A DNA stretch of 64,000 nucleotides from a virus (Duplodnaviria > Caudoviricetes), in the IMG/VR virus record IMGVR_UViG_3300032226_000829. One strand, written 5' to 3'. The position numbers and the translations under genes are program-made. Below, piece by piece: positions 3,001 to 32,514 of the stretch; within the stretch, counting starts at the first letter, position 1; the number at the start of each line of letters is the position of its first letter. Below the pieces are notes generated by a model. The model saw only the letters and a list, made by a program, of their open reading frames with translations. It did not search any database and was not told the DNA's origin.

Positions 3001-3233
3001 GATCCTCTTTGAACGTGTCTATTCTAAGGGCAGGTGCCATACAGATACAAAATGACTTCATATTTAATGTGGGTGGAGAGCCTATACAGATAAATTCACC
3101 GGTGAATTTCAAGTCAGGAATCAAAGGATCCATGCTGGCATTGAATTATTTCTTGGGTGGAGTAGCTTCCACAGAGCTCAACGAAGGTGATGCTGTGAGT
3201 GGGATAGACACCAGCAATGGATATGGTAGTTAG
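1..3233 (+). CDS. Giant tail-fibre/virion structural protein (VrlC-like scaffold) with Asp-box beta-propeller; 5'-truncated at the window edge
   Basis: Frame is open from base 3 (TKRPSGGAFVSLNPG...WITNKSPYVQNVSTFGTGCVGLKVDG), so the track start at 129 is not the real start. Paralog of 3270..9290 (shared NDFTQI.SDGIG.W and RLTGHDFLDIGTG motifs). Asp-box-like SADNGVSW and SIDGKHW. Confidence 0.8.
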   Translation, partial: TKRPSGGAFVSLNPGNSPSDTTAWITNKSPYVQNVSTFGTGCVGLKVDGDLHNGGNKSVVANDFTQIISDGIGFWVKGEGKSELVSVFTYYCHIGYLAEDGGKVRGTNGNNSYGSYGAVAEGFSLAETPITAEIDNRSGEALINSVYNDENQIFCFGYSHTGQDYTSATVTITGSGAGAAAFIGYDNTRYQSISEVRLTDPLDSGITGGLGYTNILGNAQGGDDNSILLAAQYEPQYEKLFTATSGNPANTITVQNITEMNVNDAIIFPSSAFGNIVPDTVYYVKELVNAATIRISQTPGGAVFVLTGATGVGYFVAARIIGQRVQIIEGTGRGQYGVISYYDHPTKSISVVRQFDGLPGFEHLLGGLAIEPVLDGSTKYSIEPLASFSDPTYSVSNTTLPISATWGVVGSARFGSTNVTVVLSASGGYFTTNGSTWTACTGLAPVNYLYTARSSTHLLAISTNAISGTTTGSTWTGLTTPGGYGAFTSISCEQDIFIITTNQGFVLRSADNGVSWTAAAVAPYDGSTPALTHSAGGSGLFIVCDDLGQTYESPNLAVSWYQGPDIGSTGINVQDIVYGNNRFVAACNDNPNDSSTLSNRFYYTLANQSTVASSAITVWQPSELPPESDQYVISYSQGCFVAITELGDLAESIDGKHWKVLGTQLGVGGPGSWVTIAGGSVNGPCFIPLTDTSTNQIKVIRYGARALGRVRTNAGRISQIELIEPGSGYSFAPTITVVDNENVIDALYSVRTNNGTISQPTFTNRGTGFLNVSATVNGDGLADKYQTGKFLRIKNLSRLPSPGDNVEFANIPNSLFKLGNFVSLGGVEPNIFGTLRVGPGLDAYLSPDHEEEITIRQNYSQVRLTGHDFLDIGTGNKFTTNYPDLYKTGFTAGYEPAQFNEVVESGGGRVFYTSTDQNGNFRVGEQFRVEQNTGIVTLSADFFTLDGLTELALGGVVLGGSGAVIREFSIDATMAANSDNIVPTQKAIIAYIQSRISGGGSSLNVSILRAGAIQIQNDFIFNVGGEPIQINSPVNFKSGIKGSMLALNYFLGGVASTELNEGDAVSGIDTSNGYGS

Positions 3234-3269: not shown

Positions 3270-6200
3270 ATGGCTGAGTTTAAATTAGGTAGGATTAGGT
3301 TCATTTGGAAAGGTGCCTGGATCACTGCCGTTGAGTATTTTATCGATGATGTGATAAGATATGGTGGCCGTACCTATATCTGCGTGGTGGGACACACCAG
3401 CGGTACTTTTCAAACAGATTTAACTGCTGCAAAATGGAACCTGATGAGTGATGGTCAGGAGTGGAAAGCCAACTGGTCTTTGAACACCACATACAAACCC
3501 AATGACATTGTGAAATATGGTGGGTATTTGTACATTGCCAACGAAGGACACACTTCAGCTGCCACAACCACTTTGGGATTAGAAGCAGATCAATCCAAAT
3601 GGGATTTATTTTCAGAAGGATTTGATTACAAATCAGATTGGGCAATCAGTACCAGATACAAAGTAAATGATTTAGTCAAGTACGGTGCATACATCTACAC
3701 CTGTATCACTGCACACACATCAGCTGCCACCACCACTTTAGGTTTGGAAAATAATATTGGCAACTGGGAAGTTTTCTCCAAAGGATTCAATTGGTTGAAT
3801 GCTTGGGCTACCACTACCAGATACAAATTGGGAGACGTGGTCAGATACGGTGGACAACTGTATGTGGCCAACCTAGGACACACTTCAAATGCATCAGCCA
3901 CACTGTTGGGTGGTGGATTGGAAGCTGATCAAGCCAAGTGGGATTATCTACACAAAGGTATTGAATATAAATCAGATTGGGCAGGTACCACCAGATACAA
4001 AATCAATGATGTGGTCAAATGGGGACCAAGTCTTTGGATCTGTACCACTTATCACGTTTCTACTGCCACACTCACTGCAGATCAAGCCAACTGGGCTGTG
4101 TTTGTACCAGGATTAGAATTTGAAGACTCGTGGAGTTCCGCAACCAACTATCAGATAGGTGACTTTGTGACCTATGGTGGTTATGGTTACGTGGCCAAGA
4201 CCAATAGTTTGAATAAAAACCCCAACACCTATGCAGGTGTGGATTGGGATCTATTTGTAACAGGATTCCGTCTAAGAGGTGATTACAACAACGGCACTGC
4301 ATATCTCAATGGTGATGTGGTACGCTTGGGAGGATTCACTTATATCTGTATTGAAGACAGCACAGGCAACAGACCACCCAATGTGACCTACTGGGACAAA
4401 CTCAACGAAGGAATCTATTGGAAAGGCAACTGGGCCAATGCCACTCTGTATGACAAAGGTGATGTGGTACGAGGAATTATTAATACCAACAATTCATATA
4501 TTTGTATACTGGCTCACACTTCCAACAACGTGGGACCTGCCACAATCACACAACCAGATTATGCACCAGGAGCTGGAGTGGACACTGGCACATATTGGCA
4601 ACTATTATCGGGAGGTGCAGAAAGCACAGCACTGACCACACAAGGAGATTTATTATTGTACGGACCATCAGGTCCTACTAGATTACCAATTGGACTTTCA
4701 GGTCAAACATTATTGGTGAACTCTGCAGGCACGCTGCCTGAATGGGGTTACTTTGGAAAGATTGACAATGTATGGTACGTGGCTCTATCAGGTGTGGATG
4801 CACCAGCTCCAGACTACGGTGCCACATTGAACCAACCTTGGAGAACCATTCAATATGCTCTTAAAGAAATAGACAAAGGACCGTTGTATCCTAAAGCAAA
4901 AAATTTATTAGTGAGAAACAAAGCATTCATACAGAGAGAAACTGTGGCCTACATAAATGCCACGTTCCAAGCCACTTGTACCAACACCACCACAAGCACC
5001 AATCTAATCACCTGCAACAGCACTGTGAATCTTAGAGTGGGCATGAGAGTGGAATTCACTGGCACCACATTTGGCGGAGTAAGCACTGTGACTGAATATT
5101 ATATCATCACTAAAACATCTACGCAGATCAGTGTGAGTCTCACACCCACAGGTTCAGCAGTTGCACTCAGCACCGCTGCAGGCACTATGGTGGTAAAATT
5201 AAAATATGACAGTGCCAAATGTCTAAGAGATATAGGACAAATCATTGATGCTGTGCAATGGGATTTGAGTCATGGTGGCAATGAGAAATCAAGATTGGCT
5301 GCTATTTCTTATTACACAGGCAGCGGATCATATGTGTATGGTCAGGAAACAGAGACCAGTGCTGCTATTGAATTTGCCAAGACCGTGATTGATGCTGCCA
5401 TTTCCAATGACGCAACCTATGCAGAATTGCAATTGGTTGTGCCACAAGTGATTGACAACGATATTATGGAAGAACCTCAAGCACAAGGTTTGATAGAATC
5501 ATTGATGGACATCATCATAGATGCAATCACTGCAGGCGATGTGGATGATGTGCCAGCTGAGATTATTGCCGGCAACACTGTGAATGTGAAGACAGGAATA
5601 TTTTATGAAGTATTGCCCATACGTGTGCGCGAAAGCACAGCCATTGTGGGAGATGAGTTGAGAAGCACCAACATCAGACCTGCTCCCAGCTATGTAAATA
5701 TTTCAGACACTCCATACACATTGCTAGGCATTGACAGATTAGAAAATATCATTGATGATATTATTACCAACACTCCTGTATCAGCCACAGCAGCTGGATA
5801 TGTCACATCAGTGTCCACACCAGTACAAGATGTCAACAGAACTTCTGGAGTATACACCAACAGAACAGTGACTGGTGGAACAGGCAGTGGCGCAACATTT
5901 GATGTCACTGTGAATGCCACAGGTTTCGTAACTCTAATCACTGTGAACACTTCAGGCACAGGCTACACAGTGGGCAACACTCTTACCATAGCATCAGGAC
6001 AATTGGGAGTCAGCAGTTTGGCTGCCACTTTCACTGTGAGCACTGTGGGCGCCGGCAACACTATTACACAAAATGTGAGTGCTCCAGCAGGATCTGCTCC
6101 AGCAGCAGCCGCAGCAGTGAGCATTGTGGAAGACATTTATGATTATATCAACTACAATGTGATTGGTGACAGTTCCAGTCCCGAGCCCACTGTGAGTGGT

Positions 6201-9200
6201 TCTAATCTGCCTCAGACTGCAATTGGTTACACAGATGCTGTGTTGAGATTGATTGAAAATAGAGAATTTTTAGCCACTGAAGTGGTGGAATACACCAAAA
6301 AAACCAATCCTGGTGCTTTCCTTACGTATTTTACAGCAGCCAACGAATTGTCTTGCAAAAGAGATGTGAGAGAATATGTGGATGCTGTGGCCCATGATTT
6401 GATCTACACCGGCAATTACAAAGCTATCGTGGCTGCCAAGTATTATGAAACTGCTGTGACCGGCAGTGTGGCTTCGGACATGTTCTACATGAGAAACGGC
6501 ACAGGATTAAGAAACTGCACACTGCAAGGATTAACAGGCTCATTGGGTGCTGTTAACGCTTACGGCACACAGAGACCCACTGCTGGAGCCTATGTATCAT
6601 TGGATGCAGGTTGGGGACCATCACATGAAGATGTGTGGATCACCAACAAATCACCCTATGTACAAAACGTATCCACATTCGGCACAGGTTGCGTGGGATT
6701 AAAAGTGGATGGTGCACTGCACAACGGTGGAAATGATTCAGTGGTGGCCAATGACTTCACACAAATTTTATCAGATGGTATCGGATTCTGGGTGACCAAC
6801 CTAGGTAGATCAGAATTAGTTTCTGTGTTCAGTTACTACAATCACATTGGATACCTAGCTGAAAATGGTGGCAAAGTGCGTGCTACCAACGGAAATAACT
6901 CTTATGGAAAATTTGGATCAGTGTCTGAAGGCGGAGATGCTTCAGAAGTTCCAGTCACATGCGTGGTCAACAACAAAAGCACAGATGCCACAGTGGGAAA
7001 TACTTTCACAGATGGTGATAGAATATTGGCTTTGGAGTATACCAATGCTGGAACCAATTACACCACAGCAGCCACACTGACCATATCAGGAGATGGTTTT
7101 GGTCTTGCTGGTACCACTGCCACAGTGCGCAACGGTGCTGTGTATGAAATTAGATTAGATGAAACTGTCACATCACCTGAGAGCAACTATGGTGGTGATG
7201 GATATATCACAGCCAGCAACGTGTCTCAAAGCGGCACTGATAAAACTATCACTATTTCCAACACTGACACATCATTGGCCAGTCAGTTGACCGGATTATC
7301 CATATACATCACTGAAGGATTAGGAGCAGGACAGTATGCTTACGTGGTGGGATTCAATGCAGGTACCAAGGCTGTCAAAGTGGCCCGACCTTCATTCACA
7401 TCATTCACAGTCACAGCTGCCACAGCGTCAAATGATAGATTCACTTGTGCTAGCAGCAGCACATTAGACATTAACATGCCCATCATGTTCAGCGGCACAG
7501 CATTTGGTGGAGTGACCACCACTGCTACCAATCCAACCATTTACTATGTGTTGAGCAAGCCCACTGGAACCACATTCACTATCAGCACCACACCAGGTGG
7601 ATCAACTTTTGATGTCTCGGCTGATGCTGTAGGCACCATGACCATACACAAAGCAGGTTGGGATCATTTGGTTAACACCACTTGTACCAACACCACAGTG
7701 ACCACAGATGTGATCACTTGTGCATCCACTGCAGGATTGTATGTGGGTGCAGCAGTGCAGTTTGATGGCACCACATTTGGTGGCATAAATCCATACACTC
7801 AATACTATGTGATCAGCACAGGATTCACAGCAACACAATTCAAAGTCAGCACTTCTTTGGGCGGCGCAGCAGTCACGCTCAGCACTGCTGCAGGCACCAT
7901 GAGTGTGAGATTGGTAGAAGTTATATTAGACGGTACCACCAAGTATGACTATGCTCCACGTATTATTGTGAGTGCTCCTCCTTCAGGTATCACAACCATT
8001 GCCAGAGCAGTGGTCACAGCAGAAAAAATATCTGCCATTAGAATTATTGAACCAGGTTCAGGCTATGTGACGGCTCCCACAGTGACCATAGTGGATCCCA
8101 GCAACACAGTGGAAGCACCTGTGGAAGTTTTCATTGGCAATGGAGCTTTGGGTCAACCCACATTCACCAACAGAGGATCATCATTTTTGACAGCCGTAAC
8201 CACAGTGACCGAAACAGGCGTGGTACGCACTGTGAGTGGCATCACCAATGCCAACCCAGGAGTGGTCACAACTTCAACAAACCACACTTACACCAGTGGA
8301 CAAAAAGTTATTTTTGCAAACGTGGCTGGCATGTTCCAAATCAACAGCGGAGTGTACTACTATGTGAATGTGTTGACTCCAAACACTTTTTCATTGTATG
8401 TGGATTCAGCACTGACTGTGCCTTTGAACACCACTGACTACGGAGTTTACATTGCTTCATTGGGCACTGTGACAGAATTTGGCGGATTTAGAAACAGTCT
8501 ACAGAATGGCAAATTTATACAAGTGGAAGGATTGACGCAAATTCCACAGGCAGGAGCCAATGTAGAATTTGCTTCATTGCCAGGCAACTATTACAAACTG
8601 GTAACTGTGCAGAATCTATTGGGCACACAGTATCCATTCACTGCACTGTTGCAAGTGAGCCCACAGATAGAAGTGTCAGAAGCACCACCGCATGGTGATC
8701 CTGTCACAATTAAAATTAGATATTCGCAAATCAGATTAACAGGTCACGATTTCTTAGACATAGGTACAGGTGGTTTTACTAGCACAAACTATCCTGGCAT
8801 ACCTTTAACTCCTGCTGATTCAGACAACGAGACTGTGGAATCAGGTGGAGGACGTGTGTTCTTTACCAGCACAGATCAAGACGGTAACTTCCGAGTGGGA
8901 GATTTATTCTCAGTGGAGCAGAGCACAGGTGTGGCCACATTGAATGCTGATGCGTTCAATATTTCAGGATTACAAGAACTTCAGTTGGGTGAATTAGTAT
9001 TGGGAGGCAGCAGTGCTTCTATCAATGAATTCTCCACAGATGGTACAATGGCAGCCAACAGTGACCAAATTGTGCCCACACAGAGAGCGATTAGAACATA
9101 TATAGCTAGTCAAATCGGTGGTGGAGCCAGCAGTTTGAACGTGAACCAAATCACAGCAGGTTTGATCACAATATTTGCTTCAACCATTGAGACCACCACT

Positions 9201-9290
9201 GGAGTGACAATAAACTTTGAATCCCCTGTGAATTTCACAGCGGGAGTGAACGGAGCGCCCGTAGCAATGGGGCTTTTCCTACAAGGATAA
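3270..9290 (+). CDS. 2006-aa tail-fibre/virion structural protein with 8 N-terminal CBM5/12-like repeats and inserted beta-domains
   Basis: Long ORF with SD AAGGA and upstream TAAATA; W-x5-Y-x3-D-x-V-x-YGG-x2-Y-x-C-x3-HTS repeats; Thr/Ser/Gly-rich; C-terminal half paralogous to the first ORF. Confidence 0.8.
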   Translation: MAEFKLGRIRFIWKGAWITAVEYFIDDVIRYGGRTYICVVGHTSGTFQTDLTAAKWNLMSDGQEWKANWSLNTTYKPNDIVKYGGYLYIANEGHTSAATTTLGLEADQSKWDLFSEGFDYKSDWAISTRYKVNDLVKYGAYIYTCITAHTSAATTTLGLENNIGNWEVFSKGFNWLNAWATTTRYKLGDVVRYGGQLYVANLGHTSNASATLLGGGLEADQAKWDYLHKGIEYKSDWAGTTRYKINDVVKWGPSLWICTTYHVSTATLTADQANWAVFVPGLEFEDSWSSATNYQIGDFVTYGGYGYVAKTNSLNKNPNTYAGVDWDLFVTGFRLRGDYNNGTAYLNGDVVRLGGFTYICIEDSTGNRPPNVTYWDKLNEGIYWKGNWANATLYDKGDVVRGIINTNNSYICILAHTSNNVGPATITQPDYAPGAGVDTGTYWQLLSGGAESTALTTQGDLLLYGPSGPTRLPIGLSGQTLLVNSAGTLPEWGYFGKIDNVWYVALSGVDAPAPDYGATLNQPWRTIQYALKEIDKGPLYPKAKNLLVRNKAFIQRETVAYINATFQATCTNTTTSTNLITCNSTVNLRVGMRVEFTGTTFGGVSTVTEYYIITKTSTQISVSLTPTGSAVALSTAAGTMVVKLKYDSAKCLRDIGQIIDAVQWDLSHGGNEKSRLAAISYYTGSGSYVYGQETETSAAIEFAKTVIDAAISNDATYAELQLVVPQVIDNDIMEEPQAQGLIESLMDIIIDAITAGDVDDVPAEIIAGNTVNVKTGIFYEVLPIRVRESTAIVGDELRSTNIRPAPSYVNISDTPYTLLGIDRLENIIDDIITNTPVSATAAGYVTSVSTPVQDVNRTSGVYTNRTVTGGTGSGATFDVTVNATGFVTLITVNTSGTGYTVGNTLTIASGQLGVSSLAATFTVSTVGAGNTITQNVSAPAGSAPAAAAAVSIVEDIYDYINYNVIGDSSSPEPTVSGSNLPQTAIGYTDAVLRLIENREFLATEVVEYTKKTNPGAFLTYFTAANELSCKRDVREYVDAVAHDLIYTGNYKAIVAAKYYETAVTGSVASDMFYMRNGTGLRNCTLQGLTGSLGAVNAYGTQRPTAGAYVSLDAGWGPSHEDVWITNKSPYVQNVSTFGTGCVGLKVDGALHNGGNDSVVANDFTQILSDGIGFWVTNLGRSELVSVFSYYNHIGYLAENGGKVRATNGNNSYGKFGSVSEGGDASEVPVTCVVNNKSTDATVGNTFTDGDRILALEYTNAGTNYTTAATLTISGDGFGLAGTTATVRNGAVYEIRLDETVTSPESNYGGDGYITASNVSQSGTDKTITISNTDTSLASQLTGLSIYITEGLGAGQYAYVVGFNAGTKAVKVARPSFTSFTVTAATASNDRFTCASSSTLDINMPIMFSGTAFGGVTTTATNPTIYYVLSKPTGTTFTISTTPGGSTFDVSADAVGTMTIHKAGWDHLVNTTCTNTTVTTDVITCASTAGLYVGAAVQFDGTTFGGINPYTQYYVISTGFTATQFKVSTSLGGAAVTLSTAAGTMSVRLVEVILDGTTKYDYAPRIIVSAPPSGITTIARAVVTAEKISAIRIIEPGSGYVTAPTVTIVDPSNTVEAPVEVFIGNGALGQPTFTNRGSSFLTAVTTVTETGVVRTVSGITNANPGVVTTSTNHTYTSGQKVIFANVAGMFQINSGVYYYVNVLTPNTFSLYVDSALTVPLNTTDYGVYIASLGTVTEFGGFRNSLQNGKFIQVEGLTQIPQAGANVEFASLPGNYYKLVTVQNLLGTQYPFTALLQVSPQIEVSEAPPHGDPVTIKIRYSQIRLTGHDFLDIGTGGFTSTNYPGIPLTPADSDNETVESGGGRVFFTSTDQDGNFRVGDLFSVEQSTGVATLNADAFNISGLQELQLGELVLGGSSASINEFSTDGTMAANSDQIVPTQRAIRTYIASQIGGGASSLNVNQITAGLITIFASTIETTTGVTINFESPVNFTAGVNGAPVAMGLFLQG
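3300..4610 (+). repeat. Eight tandem ~50-55-aa carbohydrate-binding-module-like (CBM5/12) protein repeats
   Basis: e.g. WAISTRYKVNDLVKYGAYIYTCITAHTS, WATTTRYKLGDVVRYGGQLYVANLGHTS, WAGTTRYKINDVVKWGPSLWICTTYHVS; counted by eye. Confidence 0.7.
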
Positions 9291-9318: not shown

Positions 9319-9639
9319 ATGGCAACAGGAAGATTGGGAGCGTCGGATGTAACCGCAGCTACCTTAACAACAGTATATACCTGTCCAGCTGATACGTTTG
9401 CAATAGTTGCTGTAAACTTCCTAAATCGAGGCAATCAAGCTCAAACTTTTAGATTGGCTGTGGCTACCACAGGCACTCCTACAGTGGGTGAGTACATTGA
9501 ATACGATGTGGAAGTGCTGTCCAAAGGAGTTCTAGAAAGAACTGGTTTGGTATTGGCAGCAACACAAAGATTAGTGGCATACGCATCTGGTGGCAACGCT
9601 AGCGTGGTGGTTTACGGCATTGAAACATCAACTGCATAA
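9319..9639 (+). CDS. Small virion structural protein (fibre-associated)
   Basis: SD AGGAG; 106-aa beta-rich protein (T.VYTCP...LERTGLVL...VYGIE) of the type found next to myovirus fibre genes. Confidence 0.6.
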   Translation: MATGRLGASDVTAATLTTVYTCPADTFAIVAVNFLNRGNQAQTFRLAVATTGTPTVGEYIEYDVEVLSKGVLERTGLVLAATQRLVAYASGGNASVVVYGIETSTA

Positions 9640-9683: not shown

Positions 9684-10016
9684 ATGGGAAGATACATATC
9701 AACAACCGGAACCGCTGGTATAGTTATACGTGAAGTTAGTACAACGTATCAAGCAGTTGTGAATGATAGAATTTTGGCTAACTCTACTACAGCAGCCTTC
9801 ACTATCACTTTGCCACTGAGCACTGGACTGTTGAACAATGACACCATTCAAATCATAGACGTTGGCAACTTCGCAGGAACCAACAACATCACTGTGGCTA
9901 GAAACGGTGCACTGATCAACGGAGCAGCTGACAATTTAACAATTGACTTGAATCAGGCAATTGTGACTTTGATTTATACAGGCGTAACTTATGGTTGGAT
10001 TGTTGGCGCAGTGTAA
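9684..10016 (+). CDS. Small tail-fibre-related protein (T4 gp34-type repeat: AFTITLP...IQIID...TNNITVARNG...GW)
   Basis: SD AAGGA, upstream TAAATA; motif recognised from myovirus fibre repeats. Confidence 0.55.
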   Translation: MGRYISTTGTAGIVIREVSTTYQAVVNDRILANSTTAAFTITLPLSTGLLNNDTIQIIDVGNFAGTNNITVARNGALINGAADNLTIDLNQAIVTLIYTGVTYGWIVGAV

Positions 10017-10065: not shown

Positions 10066-11037
10066 ATGGCAAGTTTGAAAAACCTTACGGCAACCAAGAA
10101 CAATAACTTTCCACAAGTGACGGAGACCAATGTGGAATCTGGTCAGATATATAATTTTCAAACCAACAATTTTGATGGACTGCACGCAGGCATTTGTTTT
10201 CATCCCTGTCAATCAGGCACAGCAATAATTGAGATATGGGGCGCAGGTGGCTCGGGAGCCAAAATGTGCTGTTGTGGATTTGGTACTCCTGGTAACCCAG
10301 GCGCATACAGTAGAAAAACAGTCACTCTCACATGCTGCGGATATATCGCAGGATCACCAGGCATAGCCTGCGGCAATGATGCACTGTGTTTCAGAGGCTG
10401 TTCAGATGCCACTGGAGTGACCATTTATGCCAATGGCAGCAACACAGGTTGTATGTGTGCTCAAGGTGGCCGAGGCGGAATTTCTTATTGCAGCACAGGC
10501 ACCAATGCCTACTGTTGTTTCACAGCAGGCGGTTTTTATACCACTTTGGGAGTGAACGGCAACTGCGGCATAGTGTGCAACAAATGTTGTTCAGGTGGAT
10601 GGTGCGCACAGGCATATGGTGGAGACATCAACTGTCCAGGCGGATTCAGTTGTGTGAGTTTCCTAGGAGAGTCAGGATCATCTTGTCCATGCAGCACACA
10701 TTTTCACATGCAAGGACCAGCAGGATACTACTCCAAATGCGGAGTGGTGGTGAGTTTCAATTCAGATGATGGCAATGGTTTTGCCAACTGGTCAGGACAA
10801 GGCAGAGGACAATATGCTCAAGCATTGGCAGGAGCCAGCAGATGGCCTCAGATGGGATCATTTTTTGCTACCTGTTGGGGATTTTCAGGCAACTGTGGAT
10901 GTTACGAGAATGAAGGCTGTATGAATCTATTGCCTCCAGGATTTCCGTCTGCAGGACCACATCCATGTCCAGGTGTGAGAGATCACGCCAGCAAAGGTGG
11001 CAATGGTGCCATCAGAATTAAATTTATAGCAGGATAA
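10066..11037 (+). CDS. Cys/Gly-rich adhesin-like protein, paralog 1
   Basis: EIWGAGGSG glycine-rich-domain motif and C-terminal GGNGAIRIKF; about 30 Cys in 323 aa. Confidence 0.6.
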   Translation: MASLKNLTATKNNNFPQVTETNVESGQIYNFQTNNFDGLHAGICFHPCQSGTAIIEIWGAGGSGAKMCCCGFGTPGNPGAYSRKTVTLTCCGYIAGSPGIACGNDALCFRGCSDATGVTIYANGSNTGCMCAQGGRGGISYCSTGTNAYCCFTAGGFYTTLGVNGNCGIVCNKCCSGGWCAQAYGGDINCPGGFSCVSFLGESGSSCPCSTHFHMQGPAGYYSKCGVVVSFNSDDGNGFANWSGQGRGQYAQALAGASRWPQMGSFFATCWGFSGNCGCYENEGCMNLLPPGFPSAGPHPCPGVRDHASKGGNGAIRIKFIAG

Positions 11038-11042
11038 ACATT

Positions 11043-12041
11043 ATGGCCACACTGAGATCATTATTAGAAACCAAACTGTCGTTCCAGTTGCAGGGTTTAG
11101 AAAGCAACACTGAAGAAGGTAGAATTTGGTCCTACACTCCAGGCACAGCAGTGGGCACCAACTTCTGTTGTGGTGTGTGTTGGATATCACCAGGCACAGG
11201 CACAGCCACCATTGAGATATGGGGTGCAGGTGGTTCTGGAGCCAAAATGTGCTGCTGCGGATTCGGATTGCCTGGCAATCCAGGTGGATATTCTTCAAGA
11301 ACAGTCAACGTCACTGTGGGCTGTTGTATCAGAGGCAACGTGGGATTATCCTGCGGTAACTCAGACGATTTATGTTACAGAGGCAGATCAGAAAGCACAG
11401 GAGTGTGCTGGCAGGGCAATGGCACCAATGGTTGTATGTGTGCAGAAGGTGGTCAAGGTGGCTACAGCTATTGTTCTACCACTCCATCGGCCTATTGCTG
11501 CTTTGGAGCCAACGGATTTTGCAACACCAAAACCGCTGGTGAAAACTGCGGAATAATTTGCAACTACAGAGGCGCAGGTTGCGCTGTGCATGAAGCTCAA
11601 GGATACGGCGGCACCTGCAACATGGCAGCTGGATTCAGTTGTGTGAGTTTCTTTGGATGCTTGCCATCATGTCCATGTGCATTTTGGTATCACACCAGAA
11701 CACCACCCAAGATGTATGCAGACTGTGGAGCATGGATCACCTACACCAATGATGTGGACAATGGAGCCTACAACTGGAGCGGTGGCGCTCAGTATGGTTA
11801 CATACACACATTAGGACTTACTTCTCGCAATCCCACACATGGCGGTAACTATTCAGCCTGTTGGACTGGTCATAGATATTGCGGTTGCTACAACATGAAC
11901 GGTTGCATAGCATTTGTGCCACCAGGTCATGCAGGAGCACCACCACATCCATGTCCAGATGTGAGAGATCATGCCTACCGAGGTGGACATGGTATAATTA
12001 GAATTAAATACGTGGGAACAGGATATTTGGGGTTAAACTAA
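11043..12041 (+). CDS. Cys/Gly-rich adhesin-like protein, paralog 2
   Basis: EIWGAGGSGAKMCCCG ... PCPDVRDH..RGGHGIIRIKY; about 31 Cys in 332 aa. Confidence 0.6.
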   Translation: MATLRSLLETKLSFQLQGLESNTEEGRIWSYTPGTAVGTNFCCGVCWISPGTGTATIEIWGAGGSGAKMCCCGFGLPGNPGGYSSRTVNVTVGCCIRGNVGLSCGNSDDLCYRGRSESTGVCWQGNGTNGCMCAEGGQGGYSYCSTTPSAYCCFGANGFCNTKTAGENCGIICNYRGAGCAVHEAQGYGGTCNMAAGFSCVSFFGCLPSCPCAFWYHTRTPPKMYADCGAWITYTNDVDNGAYNWSGGAQYGYIHTLGLTSRNPTHGGNYSACWTGHRYCGCYNMNGCIAFVPPGHAGAPPHPCPDVRDHAYRGGHGIIRIKYVGTGYLGLN

Positions 12042-13003
12042 TGGCTGGATTAAAAAGTATATTATCATCAAAAGTGTCATACACCGTGACTGAGAACAAC
12101 CTTGAACAGGGTGTGATCTATGCATTCTCACCCGGCACATTCTACACCAATTACTGCAACGGCTTCTGTTGGAAACCACCAGCCACAGGTTGTGCCATTG
12201 TGGAGATATGGGGTGCTGGTGGATCAGGATCGCGTATGTGCTGTTGTGGTGGAGGATTGCCCGGCAATGCAGGTGGATATTCAAGAAAAAGCATAGCAGT
12301 GACCACTGCCAACTTTGTGTGTGGCTGTGTGGGCTTTCCCAGATATGCTCATGATTTATGTTTTTCAGGTTGCGGTGATCCCAGCACAGTGTGTTGGACC
12401 AGCACTGATTCCAATGGTTGCTTGTGTGCCAGAGGTGGCCGAGGTGGCACTAGTTTCTGCAGCACCGGCACCAGCATGTTCTGTTGCTACAGAGCCAACG
12501 GATTTTGTAGTTTTGGACCCATCAACGACAACTGCGGCATCGTGTGCAATCATTGTTCAGGTGGTTGGGAATCACTGGCATACGGTGGTGACATCAACTG
12601 CTGCGGCACCATAGGCTGCACATCATTCTTGGGCTGTTATCCCACATGTCCTTGTTACACACATCATCATGCTCCTCTGCCAGCCTACATGTTTGCAGAA
12701 AAAGGCGCTAGAGTGAGTTTTCAAACATCAGACGGACAAGCCAACACAAGTGGTATGTCAGGCAGTCAGCTGCCTGCTTATCTACAATCACTGGCAGCAC
12801 TCAGCAAACAACCTACCAGAGGCACTTTCAACTCTTATTGTTGGAGATCAGACAGATCCTGCGGATGTTATGAGATGCAAGGATGTTCACCATTTTTACC
12901 CGTAGGCGCAGGTGGTCTACCTCCACAACCTTGTCCAGATGTGAGAGATCATGGAATCAGAGGCGGCTGGGGTGGTATGCGTATCAGATTTATAGCAAGT
13001 TAA
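12041..13003 (+). CDS. Cys/Gly-rich adhesin-like protein, paralog 3
   Basis: EIWGAGGSGSRMCCCG ... PCPDVRDHGIRGGWGGMRIRF; about 31 Cys in 320 aa; TAATG stop/start overlap with paralog 2. Confidence 0.6.
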   Translation: MAGLKSILSSKVSYTVTENNLEQGVIYAFSPGTFYTNYCNGFCWKPPATGCAIVEIWGAGGSGSRMCCCGGGLPGNAGGYSRKSIAVTTANFVCGCVGFPRYAHDLCFSGCGDPSTVCWTSTDSNGCLCARGGRGGTSFCSTGTSMFCCYRANGFCSFGPINDNCGIVCNHCSGGWESLAYGGDINCCGTIGCTSFLGCYPTCPCYTHHHAPLPAYMFAEKGARVSFQTSDGQANTSGMSGSQLPAYLQSLAALSKQPTRGTFNSYCWRSDRSCGCYEMQGCSPFLPVGAGGLPPQPCPDVRDHGIRGGWGGMRIRFIAS

Positions 13004-13048
13004 TATAATATGTTGATAAATACACTAAATAGCACAGAGGAATAAAAT

Positions 13049-13702
13049 ATGATAAACAAAAATTTCACAATACCTTTGGCAGATGAGCCATATCTAGACA
13101 CCACCACACAGAATAAAACATACCCTGCCACCTACACAGGCCCAAGATATTTAAAAGTGTGTGTGGATAAAGAAACCAAAATAGTGGAAAGATATGTGGC
13201 TGGTGCTGACACCATGGATGGCCTAAGTGCAATCATCGCTATTGAAGAAGCTGAAAAAATATATCAAATTTTAAATGCAGAAACACACACATTTGAAGCT
13301 GCTTATCTCACAGGCATGTACACCACCGGACCAGTGCCCAATTATACAGAAACACTGCCAACTCAAGATGATGAAGGAGTAGATGAAACTTTTGAATATG
13401 GTTGGAACGACAACACAGGAATGATTGCACAACAGTATTACAACATAGATTTAAAATTTGTAAACGGAGCATATGTAAGACCTAGATTTAGAACTCATGC
13501 ATTGACCAGAGCAAGTTTTTTAGCCAGTTTGGTTGTGCAGGCCACAGCAATTGAAGCTGCTATCGAAAGCAATGAATCACTGTCTGATGCAGACATTGCC
13601 CAACTAGAAACTTATGTGACCTGGTTGAGAAATGTACCTACCAAATATGCAAATGTCAAGCATTGGAAAATTCCATTCAAAATCACAGTACCAATTTACT
13701 AG
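13049..13702 (+). CDS. Putative tail-fibre assembly chaperone
   Basis: SD GAGG and two TAAATA upstream; C-terminus ETYVTWLRNVPTKY...HWKIPF resembles the W..YRQALRD.P...WP end of phage tail assembly chaperones; directly follows the adhesin-like genes. Confidence 0.4.
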   Translation: MINKNFTIPLADEPYLDTTTQNKTYPATYTGPRYLKVCVDKETKIVERYVAGADTMDGLSAIIAIEEAEKIYQILNAETHTFEAAYLTGMYTTGPVPNYTETLPTQDDEGVDETFEYGWNDNTGMIAQQYYNIDLKFVNGAYVRPRFRTHALTRASFLASLVVQATAIEAAIESNESLSDADIAQLETYVTWLRNVPTKYANVKHWKIPFKITVPIY

Positions 13703-13712
13703 TCAAGAATAA

Positions 13713-13742
13713 TTCACAACAAAATCACTGTTGATATATAAT
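13713..13742 (+). promoter_or_regulatory. Candidate sigma70-type promoter for the GT9/carbamoyltransferase operon
   Basis: TTCACA (13713-18), 18 nt, TATAAT (13737-42); no TAAATA in this intergenic region. Confidence 0.5.
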
Positions 13743-13773: not shown

Positions 13774-14718
13774 ATGAATAGATCCAAAGCATTTTTTTTA
13801 AACGGAGGTATTGGTCGAATTTTGTGTGCTATTCCTGCACTGGAAAAATACGCTGAAGAATCGGGCGATAAAGATTTTTTAGTCATTTGCGAAGGAGCTG
13901 TGGACATACTCAAAGGTCATCCCATACTGGATCAAAAAACCTACGATATTTTTCATAAAAATTTATTTCATTCTAAATTACAATCCAGAGAAATAGTAAG
14001 TTTGGAGCCTTATAGAGTTTGGGAATATTACAATCAAAAATGCAATCTATCTCAGGCTTTTGATATATTGATCAACGCCAAAGGAGTGAGGTCATTGCCC
14101 AAACCCACCATCCATCTCAGCAAGGAAGAAACTGCTCAAGGACAAAAATTGATGGAAGAAATCAAAGCAAAAATTAAAAAAGATAAAGCCATTGTGTTTC
14201 AACCATTTGGCAGAGGCGTAGAGCACATGGACAAAACTCTTTTGGATAAAACTGGACGCAGTTTTGAATACAAAGATGTTAAGAACTTGATACGAAAACT
14301 ACAAAAAGAAAACTTTGCAGTGATACTGATGTCAGAATTTGGCATGGATCTTAAGGATCAAAAATACACAGATGATGTGGCCATGCCCGAAGGATTGAAT
14401 CTAAGAGTGTGGACAGCACTGATCAAACAAGCTGATCATTTCTTAGGCTGTGACAGTGTGGGTCAGCACTTGGCCTACATAGTAGGCACCACTTCCACTG
14501 TGGTATTGGGACCTACCTATCCCGTCAATACCACTTATCCCGATTGTGACTATTTTAACATAATGGATATGGGAGAAATAGATAGGGAGTATGATCCAAT
14601 TAGAATTACCATGGACGAAAGAATTGCTAGAAAAAATGAAATATTGATGTCTATGAACGAAGAGATTGAAGACTATGTGATCAACGGAGTAATGAGAAGA
14701 AATCAAGATGACAAGTAA
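13774..14718 (+). CDS. GT9-like (heptosyltransferase-fold, GT-B) glycosyltransferase, paralog 1
   Basis: N-terminal GGIGRILCAIPAL (compare GT9 G.IGD....P.L) and C-terminal GCDSVGQHLAYIVG...VVLGPT (compare GT9 G.DSG..HLA.A.G...LFGPT). Confidence 0.6.
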   Translation: MNRSKAFFLNGGIGRILCAIPALEKYAEESGDKDFLVICEGAVDILKGHPILDQKTYDIFHKNLFHSKLQSREIVSLEPYRVWEYYNQKCNLSQAFDILINAKGVRSLPKPTIHLSKEETAQGQKLMEEIKAKIKKDKAIVFQPFGRGVEHMDKTLLDKTGRSFEYKDVKNLIRKLQKENFAVILMSEFGMDLKDQKYTDDVAMPEGLNLRVWTALIKQADHFLGCDSVGQHLAYIVGTTSTVVLGPTYPVNTTYPDCDYFNIMDMGEIDREYDPIRITMDERIARKNEILMSMNEEIEDYVINGVMRRNQDDK

Positions 14719-16522
14719 GCCTTCAGGTTATATTGCTGCCATTGCTAGAGGACACAATGCCGGAGTGTGTTTGTTAAAAGATGGCAACGTTGTTTTTTCC
14801 ATAGAAGAAGAAAGATTAAGTAGACAAAAATATGATGGCGGACCTTATGCCAGCATGATGGAAATATTAAAATACACTGACAAAATAGATTATTTGATTG
14901 TGGCTCACACACAAAAACTCAAAGACACAGCAGGCAAAGTGGATTTTACAGGTGATGACGTGTACACTGGACTGGCACGTAAAATGGGATTGATTGATAG
15001 AACAGCTGATCCTCACAACCATCCTCAAGTGATTGATCTCAGTCACATACATCACAAATTACATGCTGCATGTGCTTTTTACAGATCTGGTTGGGAAAGT
15101 GCTGTGTCGGTGATTGTAGATGGTGCTGGAACATTCATTGGCATTAATAATAATATTCAAGGACAGACCACGGTTTGGGAAGTGGAATCAATTATAAATT
15201 GTGCATATCCTTCAAACTTTCATTCATTGTACAAACATTATGCCACTCGTGATGCTATGATTGGTGCAATATTAAAAAATTTTCCTTCGGACATTACTGA
15301 CGAAGCTGGTAAAACTCACGAAGCAATATTCAGTGACAGAGCCGGCATAGTAAAAGTATACGAAGCTGTGACACAATATTGTGGATTCCAAGCAATTGAA
15401 GCAGGCAAAACCATGGGATTATTTCCCTATGGCAAACCCAATGATAAAATTCCGCAATTATTTGAAACTGAAGGAAAATCACCTTTGTCCAATAGAAATT
15501 TAATTGTACCAACCTACCCTAGTGCAGCGTTAGTGAACGCTCTTATTTTTGATTATCTGGAAGATGAAATAGGAAAATCTCATGATGATGTAACATTATT
15601 ACAAAATCGTAGAGATTTGGCTTATGCTTGCCAAACACAAACTCAAGAACAAGTTTTAAAATTAATTCGTAAAGCAGTGTCCATGAGCAACAATAAGAGA
15701 GTGGTGTTGTCAGGAGGATATGGATTAAATTGTGTGGCCAACTATTATTATTTAGAACATTTGAAAGAAGAAGGAATTGAACTGTATGTGGAACCAACTT
15801 CCAACGATGCTGGCACAGCAATGGGTGCAGCATTGATGTTCTATCATCAGATATTTGCTGACAAAACTCCAAAAGTGCATAACACATTATACTTGGGTCC
15901 TATAAGAGAATACACATTGGCAGACATTGAAAAAAGAGCCAGCATCAGTGAAAATAAAAATGTTAAAATAACAGATGCCACACACAAAGATATAGTAAAA
16001 CTTTTAAAATCAAAAAATATAGTGGCCATGTTCCAAGGTAGATCAGAAAACGGTCCTAGAGCATTGGGCAATAGATCCATATTGTTTGACCCAACATTCA
16101 AAGATGGCAAAGATTTTGTAAATCTAGTCAAAAAGAGAGAATACTTCCGTCCATTTGCTGGAACTATATTGCAAGATGATGTGCATGAATGGTTTGATTT
16201 GCGTGGCATGAAAGATTCTCCGTTTATGATGTATGCTGTGAATTGTCAACCAGGTGTTGAAGAAAAAATTCCTGCAATTATTCATGTGGATGGCACTTGT
16301 AGAATACAAACAGTTACTGAAGAACAAAATAAACATTATTATGATTTAATTAAAACATTCAAAGATGAAACAGGTATACCTATATTATTCAATACTTCAT
16401 TTAATTTGGGTGGTGAACCTTTGGTTGAAACTTTGGATGATGCATTTAGAACTCTAGAAAATTCCAAAATTGAATATCTATACTTGCCCGAGCATAAAAA
16501 ATTAATACACATGCCGAATTAA
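14708..16522 (+). CDS. O-carbamoyltransferase, NodU/CmcH/TobZ family
   Basis: Kae1-like HHKLHAACAF, IVDGAG, AGKTMGL, GGYGLNCVAN, NDAG motifs; YrdC-like E.GPRALGNRS, KKREYFRPFA, HVDGTCRIQTV, NTSFNLGGEP. Confidence 0.92.
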   Translation: MTSKPSGYIAAIARGHNAGVCLLKDGNVVFSIEEERLSRQKYDGGPYASMMEILKYTDKIDYLIVAHTQKLKDTAGKVDFTGDDVYTGLARKMGLIDRTADPHNHPQVIDLSHIHHKLHAACAFYRSGWESAVSVIVDGAGTFIGINNNIQGQTTVWEVESIINCAYPSNFHSLYKHYATRDAMIGAILKNFPSDITDEAGKTHEAIFSDRAGIVKVYEAVTQYCGFQAIEAGKTMGLFPYGKPNDKIPQLFETEGKSPLSNRNLIVPTYPSAALVNALIFDYLEDEIGKSHDDVTLLQNRRDLAYACQTQTQEQVLKLIRKAVSMSNNKRVVLSGGYGLNCVANYYYLEHLKEEGIELYVEPTSNDAGTAMGAALMFYHQIFADKTPKVHNTLYLGPIREYTLADIEKRASISENKNVKITDATHKDIVKLLKSKNIVAMFQGRSENGPRALGNRSILFDPTFKDGKDFVNLVKKREYFRPFAGTILQDDVHEWFDLRGMKDSPFMMYAVNCQPGVEEKIPAIIHVDGTCRIQTVTEEQNKHYYDLIKTFKDETGIPILFNTSFNLGGEPLVETLDDAFRTLENSKIEYLYLPEHKKLIHMPN

Positions 16523-16523
16523 T

Positions 16524-17474
16524 ATGAACAAAGCATTTTTTATTAACGGAGGAGCAGGTAGAACATTGTGTTCAGTGCCAGCACTAGAAAATTATGCCAA
16601 CGATAATCCCAATGATGATTTTATTATTGTGTGTGAAGGTGGCACTGATTTCTACAAAGGACATCCTAAATTACATTTTAGAGCGTATGATGTTTGGCAC
16701 AAGAATCTATTCAATGAATACTTAAAAGATAGACAACTGATAACTCCTGAACCATACAGGGTTTGGGAATACTACAATCAAAAATGTAATATTGCACAAG
16801 CATATGACATAGAGATTAATGGCAAAGGACTACGCACATTAGAAAAACCCAAAATTTATCTTTCCAAAGAAGAACTGATCATGGCAAGACAGATGATCAA
16901 AGAAATAAAAGAAACCACTAAAAAAGAAAAAATAGTAGTGTTTCAACCTTTTGGTAGAGTATCTAAAAAAGACAACGATAGTTTTATAGATGTGAGTGGT
17001 AGAAGTTTTGAATTGGAAAACATTATCAATCTAATTAGACAGTTGGGCAAACAATATGCTGTGATGGTGATGTCAGAATTTCCCATAGATTTTAGTAAAC
17101 ATCAGATAAATTTTCCAGTGGCTGTGCCTCAGAATATACATATAAGAATTTGGAGTGCTGTGATAAAAATGTGTGATCATTTCTTAGGCTGTGACAGTTT
17201 GGGCCAACATCTTGCACATGCTTTTGACAAAACAGCCACAGTGGTATTTGGTTCAACATTTCCCAATAATGTTTCTTATCCAGACAATAATAAATTTGAT
17301 ATCATTGACATGAACAAAGACAGTAGAATTTACAGTCCTATACGCATAACCATGGATGAATATGCTGACAGAGCCAATGAAGATGCTATGAAAATGGACA
17401 AAGAAGTGGAAAATAGAATTATGCAATCTGTCAACAGCATGATCAAACACGGCTACAAAAAGAATAAAAAATAA
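16524..17474 (+). CDS. GT9-like glycosyltransferase, paralog 2
   Basis: GGAGRTLCSVPAL; EPYRVWEYYNQKCN shared with paralog 1; GCDSLGQHLAHAF...VVFGST. Confidence 0.6.
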   Translation: MNKAFFINGGAGRTLCSVPALENYANDNPNDDFIIVCEGGTDFYKGHPKLHFRAYDVWHKNLFNEYLKDRQLITPEPYRVWEYYNQKCNIAQAYDIEINGKGLRTLEKPKIYLSKEELIMARQMIKEIKETTKKEKIVVFQPFGRVSKKDNDSFIDVSGRSFELENIINLIRQLGKQYAVMVMSEFPIDFSKHQINFPVAVPQNIHIRIWSAVIKMCDHFLGCDSLGQHLAHAFDKTATVVFGSTFPNNVSYPDNNKFDIIDMNKDSRIYSPIRITMDEYADRANEDAMKMDKEVENRIMQSVNSMIKHGYKKNKK

Positions 17475-18704: not shown

Positions 18705-21700
18705 ATGGCTAAAAAACAGTTAAAAAATTTTATATTTGAACCAGGTATTGGCAAGGATGATGGTCTATATCCCAATGCTGCCACACTGGTACTGGCCAAC
18801 AAAGCATTTTTACAACAACAGGTTGTGGCATACATCAACTACAACATCGCCAACGGTATTGCACCCTATGTGGGATATACCTACGCTTCACAAAAATGTA
18901 TCAGAGACGTGGGGTATTTCATAGACGCAGTCACACACGATTTAAGATATGGTGGCAATGTTAAATGTCGTCAGGTGGCAGATTATTTTTGGATAGACGG
19001 AGAACCTCAGATCCGAGGTGATGTCACACCAGAGACCACTGGACAGGCCTATCTGCGTGATATTATCAATCAATTCATACTGACCAAAACACCAGTCACT
19101 CCCACCTACGGCAACACCACACCTCAGGTATTCACTGCAGGCATCAGCACAGAGAGTGATGCTGCCACTGCCAACATAGTGTTGTGGAATATTTTCAGCA
19201 CCGTGATCACCAACGGTCCCAGTGCAATGCCAGCCAAGGTACCAGGTGTGTCTTCCATCAGAGTGATTGGACAGATTGATCCCGCCAGCATATTATTGAT
19301 TACTGATGTGGATTCAGGAAATATCTTATACAGTTTTGCTGATCCTGCCAATAGTATTTCTGTGACCTATAAACAAGGACGCAGCAGCGGCGACGGCAAT
19401 TTATTAAGTGATTTGGATTGGCCCACTTGGTGGCAGACCAGTGATTCAATCACCACCATAGACTTGAGTGCTGATACCAGCACACTCACTGTGGATTCTA
19501 ATATACAATTTTTTGTGGAAGAAGCTGCACAAACAATCAGACCTTGGGAATTCGGCACAGATGCCATTGAGCGTATGCGTGTGGCCATGCCTCAGGCCAT
19601 GTTGGATGCTGACTTTGAATATGGATTACAACCAACCAAATGGCAGGCTTTGGGTACTTTGAGAATGTATCCTTCCACATATGAAGTACCTGGCAGCGAT
19701 CTGACTGTGTTGAGTTGTGTTACTGATGCATCAGTGAACACTGGATTTTTTGGTAGTTCATTGATCACTGTGACCACTTCAGGAGTGCATGGATTCACAG
19801 TGGGTCAACCCATTTCTGTGAAAGGATTAAACAGCACTGTGTCAGGATTTGCCAGAGCAGAAGGATCTTTTTTAGTGTACAGTGTGCCTAGTTCTGTGAG
19901 TTTCACTTATTATGCTAGTGCTAGAGTAGGCACCAGCAACGAACAAAGTTTGTTGACTTCATTCATACAGATACGTCAAGCACAATTTTTCACAGGTGCT
20001 TCCATAGGTCAGCCCAGTTTTTCAGTGTTCACCAATGGTACCACACTCAGCATAGTCACTGCATTATTGGCCACCACAGGAGCCACGTCATTTGTTTACA
20101 TCGGATCAGCACCCACTGTGGGTTCACCCATAACAGGTCCTGCAGAAATTCCAGTGGGCACCAGTGTGTCAGGCACAGTGGGCGCTGCTTCTGTGACCAC
20201 CAATGTGTTATTGAACACTCTGGTCACTGACACTCAAATTAGTTTGACCAATCTCGCTGGCATACAAACCAGCATGGCTTTGGACGTGGGCGGCACAGCA
20301 TCCACCATCAACACCATAGTGGGCAGTGCATTATCATTGAGCAATCAATTGGGCGTGGCATACAAAGGTAGAGATGGAGTCAACAATGCTGTGACTGGTA
20401 CTCTCACAGCCCCAGCAGGAGTAGGTGCACAATTCAATGTGACTCGCAGTGCTGGAGTATACACCTTGGTACAAACACCAGCAGCATCACCCACACCATT
20501 CAACTATCAAAAAGGTGACAGATTAAAAATATTAGGTACCAATTTGGGTGGTGCCACACCAGCCAATGACGTTAATATTTTAATCACTGCCGCAGGCACT
20601 GGTGGTGACATAGATTCATTCACATTCACCGGCACTTCCATCTTGGGCGGTGCCACATACCTCAACATAGGACACACCGGTTACACCGGCAGCACAGGCA
20701 GTGGATTTCAGATCAATGTCACCAGAACAGGTGGCACAGGCACATATTCTATCAACTCAGTAGCAGCAGGCACTGGTTATGTTGTGACTGAACAGGTCAC
20801 ATTTGCAGGCACTCTTTTTGGTGGCACATCACCAGCCAATGACATTGTGTTGGAAATAGCTTCTGTGACTGGCACAGGCGATGTATTAACTTTCACACCA
20901 GTGGGCTCACCAGTGGGGTCATCAGGAGATGTCACTTATTCAGGCACAGCAGCTCCCAACGTGTCACACTTGGGCAATGGAGCAGAATTCAATATAACCA
21001 GAAGCAATGGAGCATATTCAGTCACACTGAACAATGCAGGCACATTGTATGAAGAAGGCAACACAGTTGCAGTATCGGGTACCACACTGAATGGTGCTAC
21101 TCCAACCAACGATGCCACCATTGAAATCACAGGAGTCACAGGAGGAGTCATAGACACAATCACCATCAGTGGAGTGGGTTATGCAGGTGATTCCATCACA
21201 GTGTATCCTACAGTGAGCATCAGTGAACCCATCACTGGCAACATCGCTGCTGGCACAGCTCTAAACGTGGGAGCCATTGCCACTGTACAAGTGGATTTTC
21301 AAGCTCCACACGGATTGGTTCCAGGCACCACCATATTGAGTCAGGTCACTTCGCAACCTGCACCAGAATTAGCATCCACAGCTAGAACCATCACAGGCAG
21401 CGGCACATGGTCTGTGGCTGCTCTGGGTGGAACTTTTGTGGCAGTGAGATCCGGTGCCACAGCCACACAGAGATCCACCAACGGACAAACTTGGGCAGCA
21501 GGCGGAGCATTGGCTTCAACAGCTTCATGGATTTCCGTGGCAGCTGGCAAAGTGAGTGGCGTTGATTATTTTGTGGTTATAGCTTCTGGCAGCACTTCTG
21601 CTGCTTGGTCTGTGAACAGTGGACAGAGCTGGACTGCTGCTGCTCTACCCAGCGGCGCCAACTGGAGCAAAGTGGCCTATGGTGACGGTGTATTTGTGGC

Positions 21701-31507: not shown

Positions 31508-32101
31508 ATGATTATCGGAATTTGCGGATTAATAGGCAGTGGCAAAGACACCATTGCTGATTGCTTGGTGGAACAACACAATTTTCAAAAAATATCTTTT
31601 GCTGACAAACTCAAAGATGCTGTGGCTCAGATGTTCGATTGGGACAGACAATTGCTGGATGGCAAAACTGATGAAAGCAGAGCTTGGAGAGAACAGCCTG
31701 ATGCTTATTGGAGCAAAGAAGTAGGCAGCACGATCACTCCTAGATTGGCTCTACAAAAGTTTGGTACAGAATGCATGCGTAATGGATTTTATGATGGCAT
31801 ATGGGTCAGTTTGACCAAGAAAAAAATTATAGAAAATCCTCAGATCAACTGGGTTATTCCAGATGTGCGTTTTGTGAATGAAGCTGACATGATCAAAAGT
31901 GTTGGTGGAAAAGTTTGGTGGGTTAAAAGAGGCACATTGCCACTGTGGTTTAAAATATATCAAGATGTGGGCATAGAACCCAAAGACATACATGCCAGTG
32001 AATGGGCATGGGCTAGATTTGCATTTGATGCTGAACTAAACAATAATAGTACTATAGAAGCTCTTAGAAGTCAGGTACAAGGTCTCCTTGCACCCATTTG
32101 A
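31508..32101 (+). CDS. Deoxynucleoside monophosphate kinase (T4 gp1-like)
   Basis: IIGICGLIGSGKDT P-loop, SFADKLK, TPRLALQKFGTE, IPDVRF.NE. Confidence 0.9.
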   Translation: MIIGICGLIGSGKDTIADCLVEQHNFQKISFADKLKDAVAQMFDWDRQLLDGKTDESRAWREQPDAYWSKEVGSTITPRLALQKFGTECMRNGFYDGIWVSLTKKKIIENPQINWVIPDVRFVNEADMIKSVGGKVWWVKRGTLPLWFKIYQDVGIEPKDIHASEWAWARFAFDAELNNNSTIEALRSQVQGLLAPI

Positions 32102-32405: not shown

Positions 32406-32514
32406 ACAGTATTTAGCTGCCCTTTTTTGGCCCTTTTTGTTAGGATTAATAAGGTGTATTTTTGAGCTATCTGAATAAATATATTCAAATAAGTCATAGA
32501 TAGGAGAAAACAAT

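Follow-up and report, generated by a model that had tools for sequence, protein, structure and literature searches.

We analyzed a 64,000-nucleotide stretch of DNA (the window) from a virus of the Caudoviricetes (Duplodnaviria; IMG/VR record IMGVR_UViG_3300032226_000829), focusing on three tandem genes for cysteine-rich proteins, named p1, p2 and p3 and together called the trio, and on the 217-residue gene that follows them, p217. The open reading frames (ORFs) of all four genes lie on the plus strand at the positions given in an earlier note on this DNA (Table 1). As that note had described, the trio consists of glycine-rich paralogs of about 10% cysteine: each has 30-31 cysteines, cysteine makes up 9.3-9.7% and glycine 15.6-18.3% of the residues, and pairwise identity is 48-50% (50% for p1 and p2, 49% for p1 and p3). 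The premise that phage proteins are usually cysteine-poor holds within the window, where the other 53 ORFs average 0.91% cysteine and the flanking fibre genes have 0-0.9%; the trio is enriched about tenfold, far above chance. A 5-nucleotide gap separates p1 from p2, and the start of p3 overlaps the stop of p2 (ATGA). The motifs MCCCG, C.CA.GG.GG, CC, NCGI.CN, CPC, PCP.VRDH, EIWGAGGSG and GG.G..RI are invariant across the three paralogs, in agreement with those quoted before, except that the spacer of the motif written as CW....CGCY is five residues long and not four. The trio is located between giant fibre proteins, downstream of two tail-protein-like genes. We propose, with a probability of about 0.6, that these proteins are cysteine-packed fibre-tip heads of the virion, probably heterotrimeric, for which p217 serves as a chaperone.

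Table 1. Genes of the cysteine-rich fibre module and the neighboring cassette (window coordinates)
Feature	Coordinates	Strand	Description
p106, 106-aa first gene of the module	9319..9639	+	similar to an internal portion of tail-fibre proteins (PHROG 11338 'tail fiber protein', E 9e-9)
p110, 110-aa second gene	9684..10016	+	small tail-protein-like domain; possible adaptor
p1, Cys-rich protein with predicted TG fold, position 1; putative fibre tip	10066..11037	+	323 aa, 30 Cys, 18.3% Gly
p2, Cys-rich paralog with predicted TG fold, position 2	11043..12041	+	332 aa, 31 Cys, short C-terminal extension
p3, Cys-rich paralog with predicted TG fold, position 3	12041..13003	+	320 aa, 31 Cys
p217, candidate fibre-assembly chaperone	13049..13702	+	217 aa, 1 Cys; N-terminal beta domain, C-terminal helical hairpin
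GT9-like / O-carbamoyltransferase / GT9-like cassette	13774..17474	+	syntenic with the trio; not itself part of the fibre tip

An AlphaFold2 model of p1 built from 46 diverse sequences reached a predicted local distance difference test score (pLDDT) of 76 and a predicted template modelling score (pTM) of 0.78. Its best match in an all-against-representatives structural search (VIA-align) was gp24 of cyanophage Pam3 (7ypx_A), with Z 15.1 and an rmsd (root-mean-square deviation) of 2.9 Å over 191 aligned residues, covering model residues 25-323. The tail tip of mycobacteriophage Bxb1 (9d93_Qa; Z 11.9, rmsd 5.0 Å, 193 aligned) and the glycine-rich TG domains of ALK (Z 7.8-8.7, rmsd 3.5-5.9 Å, 145-153 aligned) were also matched, while plain or unrelated TNF/C1q folds scored Z 4.7 or less. 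Foldseek returned the same entries at E-values of 4e-5 to 1e-4 (1e-4 for the Pam3 head), and the BFVD viral library gave 133 matches at E <= 0.001, many of them named as glycine-rich-domain proteins and the best being a protein of cyanophage S-CAM3. The predicted fold of the trio is that of the phage fibre head known as TG, a TNF-like beta-sandwich combined with a polyglycine-II bundle. The labels 'adhesin-like' and 'fibre-tip scaffold' in the earlier note are supported by this fold and by the position of the genes among fibre genes. The three genes would accordingly be expected, on this fold, to encode receptor-binding proteins at the fibre tip of the virion, with a TG head as in Pam3 gp24 and, in addition, some 30 cysteines each.

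Polyglycine-II fibre heads are a recently recognized class of receptor binders (S16 gp38, Pam3 gp24, Bxb1, ALK). The Pam3 head combines a TNF-like domain with a lattice of glycine-rich motifs, is trimeric and receptor-binding, and has a dedicated chaperone (PMC9608196, PMC9942802). Pam3 gp24 and its chaperone gp25 (PDB 7ypx, 7yfw) resemble the trio and p217 in the TNF-like and polyglycine-II head, in the trimeric state (by prediction for the trio), in having a chaperone gene directly downstream (proven for gp25, a candidate in p217; PMC9608196) and in the disulfides of the Pam3 virion. On the other hand, sequence similarity to gp24 is undetectable (18% identity in the structural alignment), only Cys28 is named as disulfide-linked in the Pam3 papers compared with about 30 cysteines per chain here, and the Pam3 glycine-rich domain has 39% glycine and 12 motifs (PMC9608196), whereas the trio has 16-18% glycine overall and fewer, poorer motifs. 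The cysteine-rich segments occupy places where more glycine motifs would be expected. Pam3 has one gene with a long N-terminal helical shaft, unlike the three diverged paralogs here, in which only about 25 residues precede the sandwich; in the p1 model these comprise a low-confidence short helix (residues 4-8) and then a conserved strand. The Bxb1 polyglycine-II tail tip (PDB 9d93; 'wing brush' gp33 and tail spike gp29, PMC13243192) has the same class of domain, yet belongs to a siphophage of a Gram-positive-type host, is not cysteine-rich and does not occur as a trio. ALK/LTK ligand-binding TG domains (PDB 7nx3, 7ls0, 7lrz, 7lir) share the supradomain architecture but are a much weaker match and come from an animal receptor that is monomeric until ligand binds, with an unrelated cysteine pattern. 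Salmonella phage S16 gp38 (PDB 6F45; cited in PMC9608196) is likewise a fibre-tip adhesin with a polyglycine-II lattice; it differs in that it is monomeric, caps the trimeric gp37 and has a beta-helix middle domain, and it was not among the listed fold matches.

The trio belongs to a large family. A word-indexed search gave 492 relatives, and an exhaustive profile search 198 clusters at 50% identity, 91 of them with E <= 1e-30. Every full-length member has 5.6-12.3% cysteine. Among 364 distinct sequences, 19 cysteine columns are conserved at 90% or more and about 24 at 83% or more; conservation of the cysteine positions extends across the family. Glycine averages 16% family-wide, with the conserved motifs WGAGGSG, G.G.PGN.G, GGRGG, YGGD and GG.G. 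The sole library match was PHROG 4205, of unknown function (E 9e-11 for p1, 2e-5 for p2 and 6e-10 for p3); Pfam and NCBIfam gave no match for the trio proteins, and a sequence search of solved structures (PDB) with the family profile found nothing. PF21722 (Gly_rich_2) was not reached by sequence (best E 0.94, in two of 46 members; no match in four related phage records), while an Atlas language-model feature search retrieved Gly_rich_2 clusters at 0.94; kinship to PF21722 is visible only by fold and by language-model features. When two of the trio proteins were compared by tblastn with 50,697 phage records, no match appeared even at E <= 1, which is likely due to the low-complexity filter, as profile searches do detect S-CAM3. 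Literature searches found no description of the family and no discussion of its counterparts in cyanophages S-CAM1 and S-CAM3.

Gene order around the trio was compared in 78 IMG/VR loci and six contigs obtained by exact protein look-up. The order is fixed: giant fibre protein(s), the 106-aa and 110-aa genes, three cysteine-rich genes, the 217-aa gene, a GT9-like gene and a carbamoyltransferase gene, often with a second GT9-like gene after the last. Three copies are present in almost every locus, and a 364-kb relative rated 100% complete has exactly three, all in tandem. The exceptions are locus L081, which has two copies, and a single-copy lineage (L080, L082 and L087). When positions 1, 2 and 3 were mapped as labels on a 218-sequence tree, nine label changes were counted versus 102 after shuffling, with p2 and p3 falling into position clades; the trio in the core clade therefore consists of old, separately retained orthologs. 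A careful tree of 15 sequences did not resolve positional orthology. In the single-copy lineage the gene (L080 3035-3991) encodes a cysteine-rich TG protein of 318 aa with 31 cysteines and is followed by a 1337-aa baseplate-wedge-like protein, with a major head gene a few kb away; no chaperone-like gene or sugar cassette is found nearby (for the cassette, within 8 kb downstream). In a sub-lineage the p217-like gene is itself tandemly duplicated, at L025 (11025-11678 and 11725-12372) and about 20 other loci, where the cysteine-rich genes stay three.

Cultured carriers exist as well. Synechococcus phage S-CAM3 (KU686199) has three tandem PHROG 4205 genes (AOV59083-AOV59085) for proteins of 329, 302 and 300 aa with 36, 35 and 24 cysteines, or 8-11.6% cysteine, while adjoining fibre genes have at most 0.2%. 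These proteins match PHROG 4205 at E 1e-76 to 4e-100 and the trio family profile at E 8e-12, and S-CAM1 has three copies too. The whole module is present in S-CAM3 (L095 13251-23020) in the same order, with homologs of p106 (E 4e-28) and p110 (E 2e-18) upstream and of p217 (242 aa; profile E 5e-17), GT9 (E 1e-108) and carbamoyltransferase (E 5e-181) downstream. Genes for ADP-heptose synthesis (kinase, isomerase, adenylyltransferase and epimerase) come directly after the carbamoyltransferase. The S-CAM3 and S-CAM1 proteins are thus distant true homologs, alike in the tandem trio, the high cysteine content and, for S-CAM3, the eight-gene module; they differ in being annotated only as hypothetical and in that many of their cysteine positions are not alignable with the window family. 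S-CAM3 is also a member of the Kyanoviridae of about 198 kb, as against a giant phage of about 360 kb here.

The earlier note had suggested that the trio forms either a heterotrimeric tip or three alternative receptor binders. Complex prediction for p1+p2+p3 with a 20-row alignment per chain gave a score of 0.88, compared with 0.02 for the best of three controls. The mark used for this score is reached by 58 of 80 solved complexes and two of 110 mismatched pairs, counts that apply only roughly to a three-chain complex with custom alignments. Contact agreement between runs was at least 82% and partner pLDDT at least 77, and the cysteines lie mostly outside the predicted interface. In the prediction the chains close into a cyclic ring with the order 1->3->2->1, and the N-terminal strand of one chain pairs with the strand at about 219-233 of the next, which would explain why the N-terminal E-N-E-G-I motif is conserved. 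The subunits would thus assemble head-to-tail into a threefold ring, with the strand E-x-N-x-E-x-G-x-I (about residues 20-30) added onto the 219-233 strand of the neighbor. The idea of a trimer gains moderate support from these controls, and the model does not separate one heterotrimer from three homotrimers. Interface covariation across 55 genomes gave z 0.77, 0.96 and 0.76 for the hetero order 1->3->2->1 and 0.18, 0.07 and -0.06 for self pairs; it is not significant, each z being below 1 and the combined z about 1.4.

Since exactly three copies, diverged and closely spaced, are retained in most lineages, a single 1:1:1 heterotrimer appears to be the most likely product, for which we would put the odds slightly short of even. 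Such a product would be C1q-like. C1q has a TNF-like jelly-roll heterotrimer head made of three paralogous chains from tandem genes. We use C1q as an analogy with no claim of homology: TNF/C1q folds match at Z 4-4.7, and C1q has no glycine-rich bundle or cysteine enrichment. Three separate homotrimers are a clearly less probable outcome. They are one form of the other possibility raised before, in which the paralogs occupy different fibres or sites, each as a homotrimer of its own or, in the manner of S16 gp38, as a monomeric cap, and provide three specificities; we consider this doubtful. One protein can evidently work alone in the single-copy lineage, three giant fibre-like proteins are encoded nearby, and the N-terminal and acceptor strands are near-identical in the three paralogs, so that homo-assembly is sterically plausible and the predicted complex is compatible with it. 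However, arsenals of alternative binders usually vary in number, while the copy number here is three at almost every locus and also in the distant S-CAM1 and S-CAM3. The genes are tightly spaced with ends overlapping or nearly touching, the covariation leans, short of significance, towards the hetero order, and a common C-terminus is found in only two of the three giant proteins.

The 217-aa gene directly follows the trio wherever a locus extends far enough. Its AlphaFold2 model (pLDDT 95.5) shows a beta domain and then a helical hairpin, a layout as in Pam3 gp25. One AFDB match is named 'Phage tail assembly chaperone-like domain' (E 7e-8, TM score 0.60), with four more at E of about 0.02, and Caudo_TAP (PF02413) was matched weakly (E 0.022) in one of 38 family members. 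These predicted-fold matches lend weak to moderate support to the description 'chaperone-like' given before, and p217 is probably a fibre-assembly chaperone; as such it would not be expected in the virion.

The GT9/carbamoyltransferase cassette follows p217 in every locus long enough. Pfam assigns Carbam_trans_C at E 4e-59, and the match to Glyco_transf_9 is weak. This co-occurrence, which the earlier note had proposed to check, amounts to a very strong genomic linkage, although it does not by itself establish that the trio is an acceptor. In that case the GT9-like enzymes and the carbamoyltransferase would add a carbamoylated heptose to Ser, Thr or Cys of the trio, in the way that adhesins are decorated by autotransporter heptosyltransferases. 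In all loci reaching that far the GT9 and carbamoyltransferase genes stay next to p217 and the trio, S-CAM3 included, where ADP-heptose genes are next and the trio is much less conserved than the transferase and carbamoyltransferase. However, the link is positional only and applies just as well to the giant fibre proteins, no cassette lies near the gene of the single-copy lineage, and a promoter and a drop in G+C content divide the cassette from the trio. No sequon is known. We regard a sugar acceptor role as quite improbable, and give cysteine as the acceptor residue equally poor odds; it would be compatible with the other readings, and glycosylated cysteines could coexist with disulfides or metal thiolates. 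The promoter is a near-consensus sigma-70-like sequence (11/12) at 13713-13742, between p217 and the first GT9-like gene, and G+C is about 0.48 across the trio but drops to 0.35-0.38 within the cassette, so the cassette may be a separate transcription unit despite the fixed synteny. The T4 late-promoter motif TATAAATA was not enriched and was absent near the trio.

The cysteines would brace the head against the environment, mainly by disulfides formed after the protein leaves the reducing cytoplasm, with some thiols free or metal-bound. Disulfides stabilize a polyglycine-II bundle (bioRxiv 10.1101/2023.11.25.568672), and disulfide-linked virions or baseplates are known in Pam3 (PMC9942802) and Milano (PMC10811340). 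Cysteine columns 158 and 202 of the family co-vary like a disulfide pair (phi 0.64), and the set 48/90/91 appears in a clade without 119/158/202; the co-varying pair and the sets of three are probably single evolutionary events. The search for a phage thiol oxidase suggested before covered Erv1/ALR (PF04777), thioredoxin (PF00085) and DsbA (PF01323), with glutaredoxin and novel oxidases outside its scope, and gave no match to any of them in four related records, of which one is 100% complete. We consider it an even bet that the cysteines serve mainly as post-release disulfides.

Several results weigh against parts of this interpretation. The number of cysteines is even in 193 of 364 proteins and odd in 171, and the total for the trio is even in 30 of 55 genomes; as even counts are not preferred, it is unlikely that all cysteines of a protein are paired in disulfides, and a part of the thiols must be free, bound to metal or cross-linked to other partners. 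A long N-terminal helical shaft as in gp24 is absent from the p1 model. Searches of solved structures with p217 returned generic helical hairpins and no convincing match, to Pam3 gp25 or Mu Tfa in particular. The single-copy lineage and the two copies at L081 mean that a heterotrimer is not obligatory, and in S-CAM3 and the most divergent genomes the members of the trio could not be assigned to positions with position-specific profiles. The high trimer score may reflect memory of, or likeness to, solved TNF-like and Pam3 trimers, and paralogs of about 50% identity would probably pass as homotrimers too. Finally, the location in the virion is deduced from fold and gene context.

The cysteine content is extreme for a structural phage protein. 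This would fit the trio being intracellular or released cysteine-rich proteins, for example late redox or metal buffers, and not virion parts. We consider this explanation very unlikely: the proteins have a fibre-head fold, their genes lie inside a fibre module, a trimer is predicted, and no signal peptide or enzyme motif was seen.

Alternatively, the cysteines could be mainly metal ligands. They would then make up thiolate sites or clusters with Zn, Fe or Cu, folded while still in the reducing cytoplasm, that either stiffen the head or carry metal on the fibre. CCC, CC, CxC and CPC motifs are frequent in thiolate clusters, the lack of preference for even counts fits this role, and cysteines are gained or lost in threes (48/90/91 versus 119/158/202). 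Metal sites occur in phage fibres, with Fe in T4 gp37 and Zn in gp12. However, the pattern of threes probably reflects one evolutionary event, conserved histidines are few, no metal-binding family was matched in Pfam or NCBIfam, and the proteins are aromatic-rich and beta-structured, unlike metallothioneins. These points make metal binding as the main function improbable, and we prefer disulfides formed after release. A metallothionein-like class was considered separately and rejected: CxC and CC motifs are present, but these beta proteins are about 320 aa long and contain 4.4% Phe, 4.1% Tyr and 2% Trp, and no Pfam or NCBIfam match was obtained.

A more speculative extension, which we hold at long odds, is that a C1q-like heterotrimer forms a redox- or metal-dependent cage of about 90 cysteines that locks after release, maybe unlocks at the host surface and is decorated with carbamoyl-heptose. 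If true, this would be a receptor-binding device that can be switched chemically and that cyanophages and giant aquatic phages have both conserved. To the polyglycine-II class the cysteine-rich trio sub-family would add two new design principles: dense thiol chemistry in a virion part made in the cytoplasm, and an assembly that is probably heterotrimeric. Marine and freshwater viral contigs contain the family in abundance, and with its linked heptose/carbamoyl cassette it bears on host recognition and survival outside cells in aquatic phages. Since the trio occurs in the cultured phages S-CAM1 and S-CAM3, in the latter with the whole module, stoichiometry and cysteine chemistry can be tested at the bench. 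New in this study are the predicted trimer with its strand-exchange geometry, the S-CAM1 and S-CAM3 carriers and the giant-phage placement, together with the single-copy lineage, the cysteine parity statistics and the chaperone-like fold of p217.

The giant-phage placement comes from the large terminase (40284-41885), whose nearest cultured relatives are PA5oct-like giant Pseudomonas phages (55% identity), and from related contigs with estimated genomes of 340-364 kb by completeness estimates. No psbA (PF00124) match was found in four related records, one of them 100% complete. Judged from these sequences, the window comes from an uncultured aquatic giant myophage, and the terminase and psbA checks do not support a cyanophage label.

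Upstream of the trio, p106 is the gene ahead in nearly all 78 loci, and p110 lies between p106 and the trio at all loci. For p110 the matches are PHROG 9648, named 'tail protein', and PHROG 31104 and PHROG 4302, both of unknown function, with E from 1e-15 to 1e-7; the Atlas search added leads only. The two giant fibre proteins further upstream (3-3233 and 3270-9290) have their last 270 or so residues in common at 51% identity; the C-terminus of the giant protein downstream (18705-25145) is unrelated to theirs. Away from the fibre module, an ORF of 149 aa with a TTG start occupies an otherwise non-coding gap on the minus strand (32064-32513). Its family matches are no better than noise, and with 11 cysteines in CxxC-type pairs it looks like a small zinc-ribbon protein.

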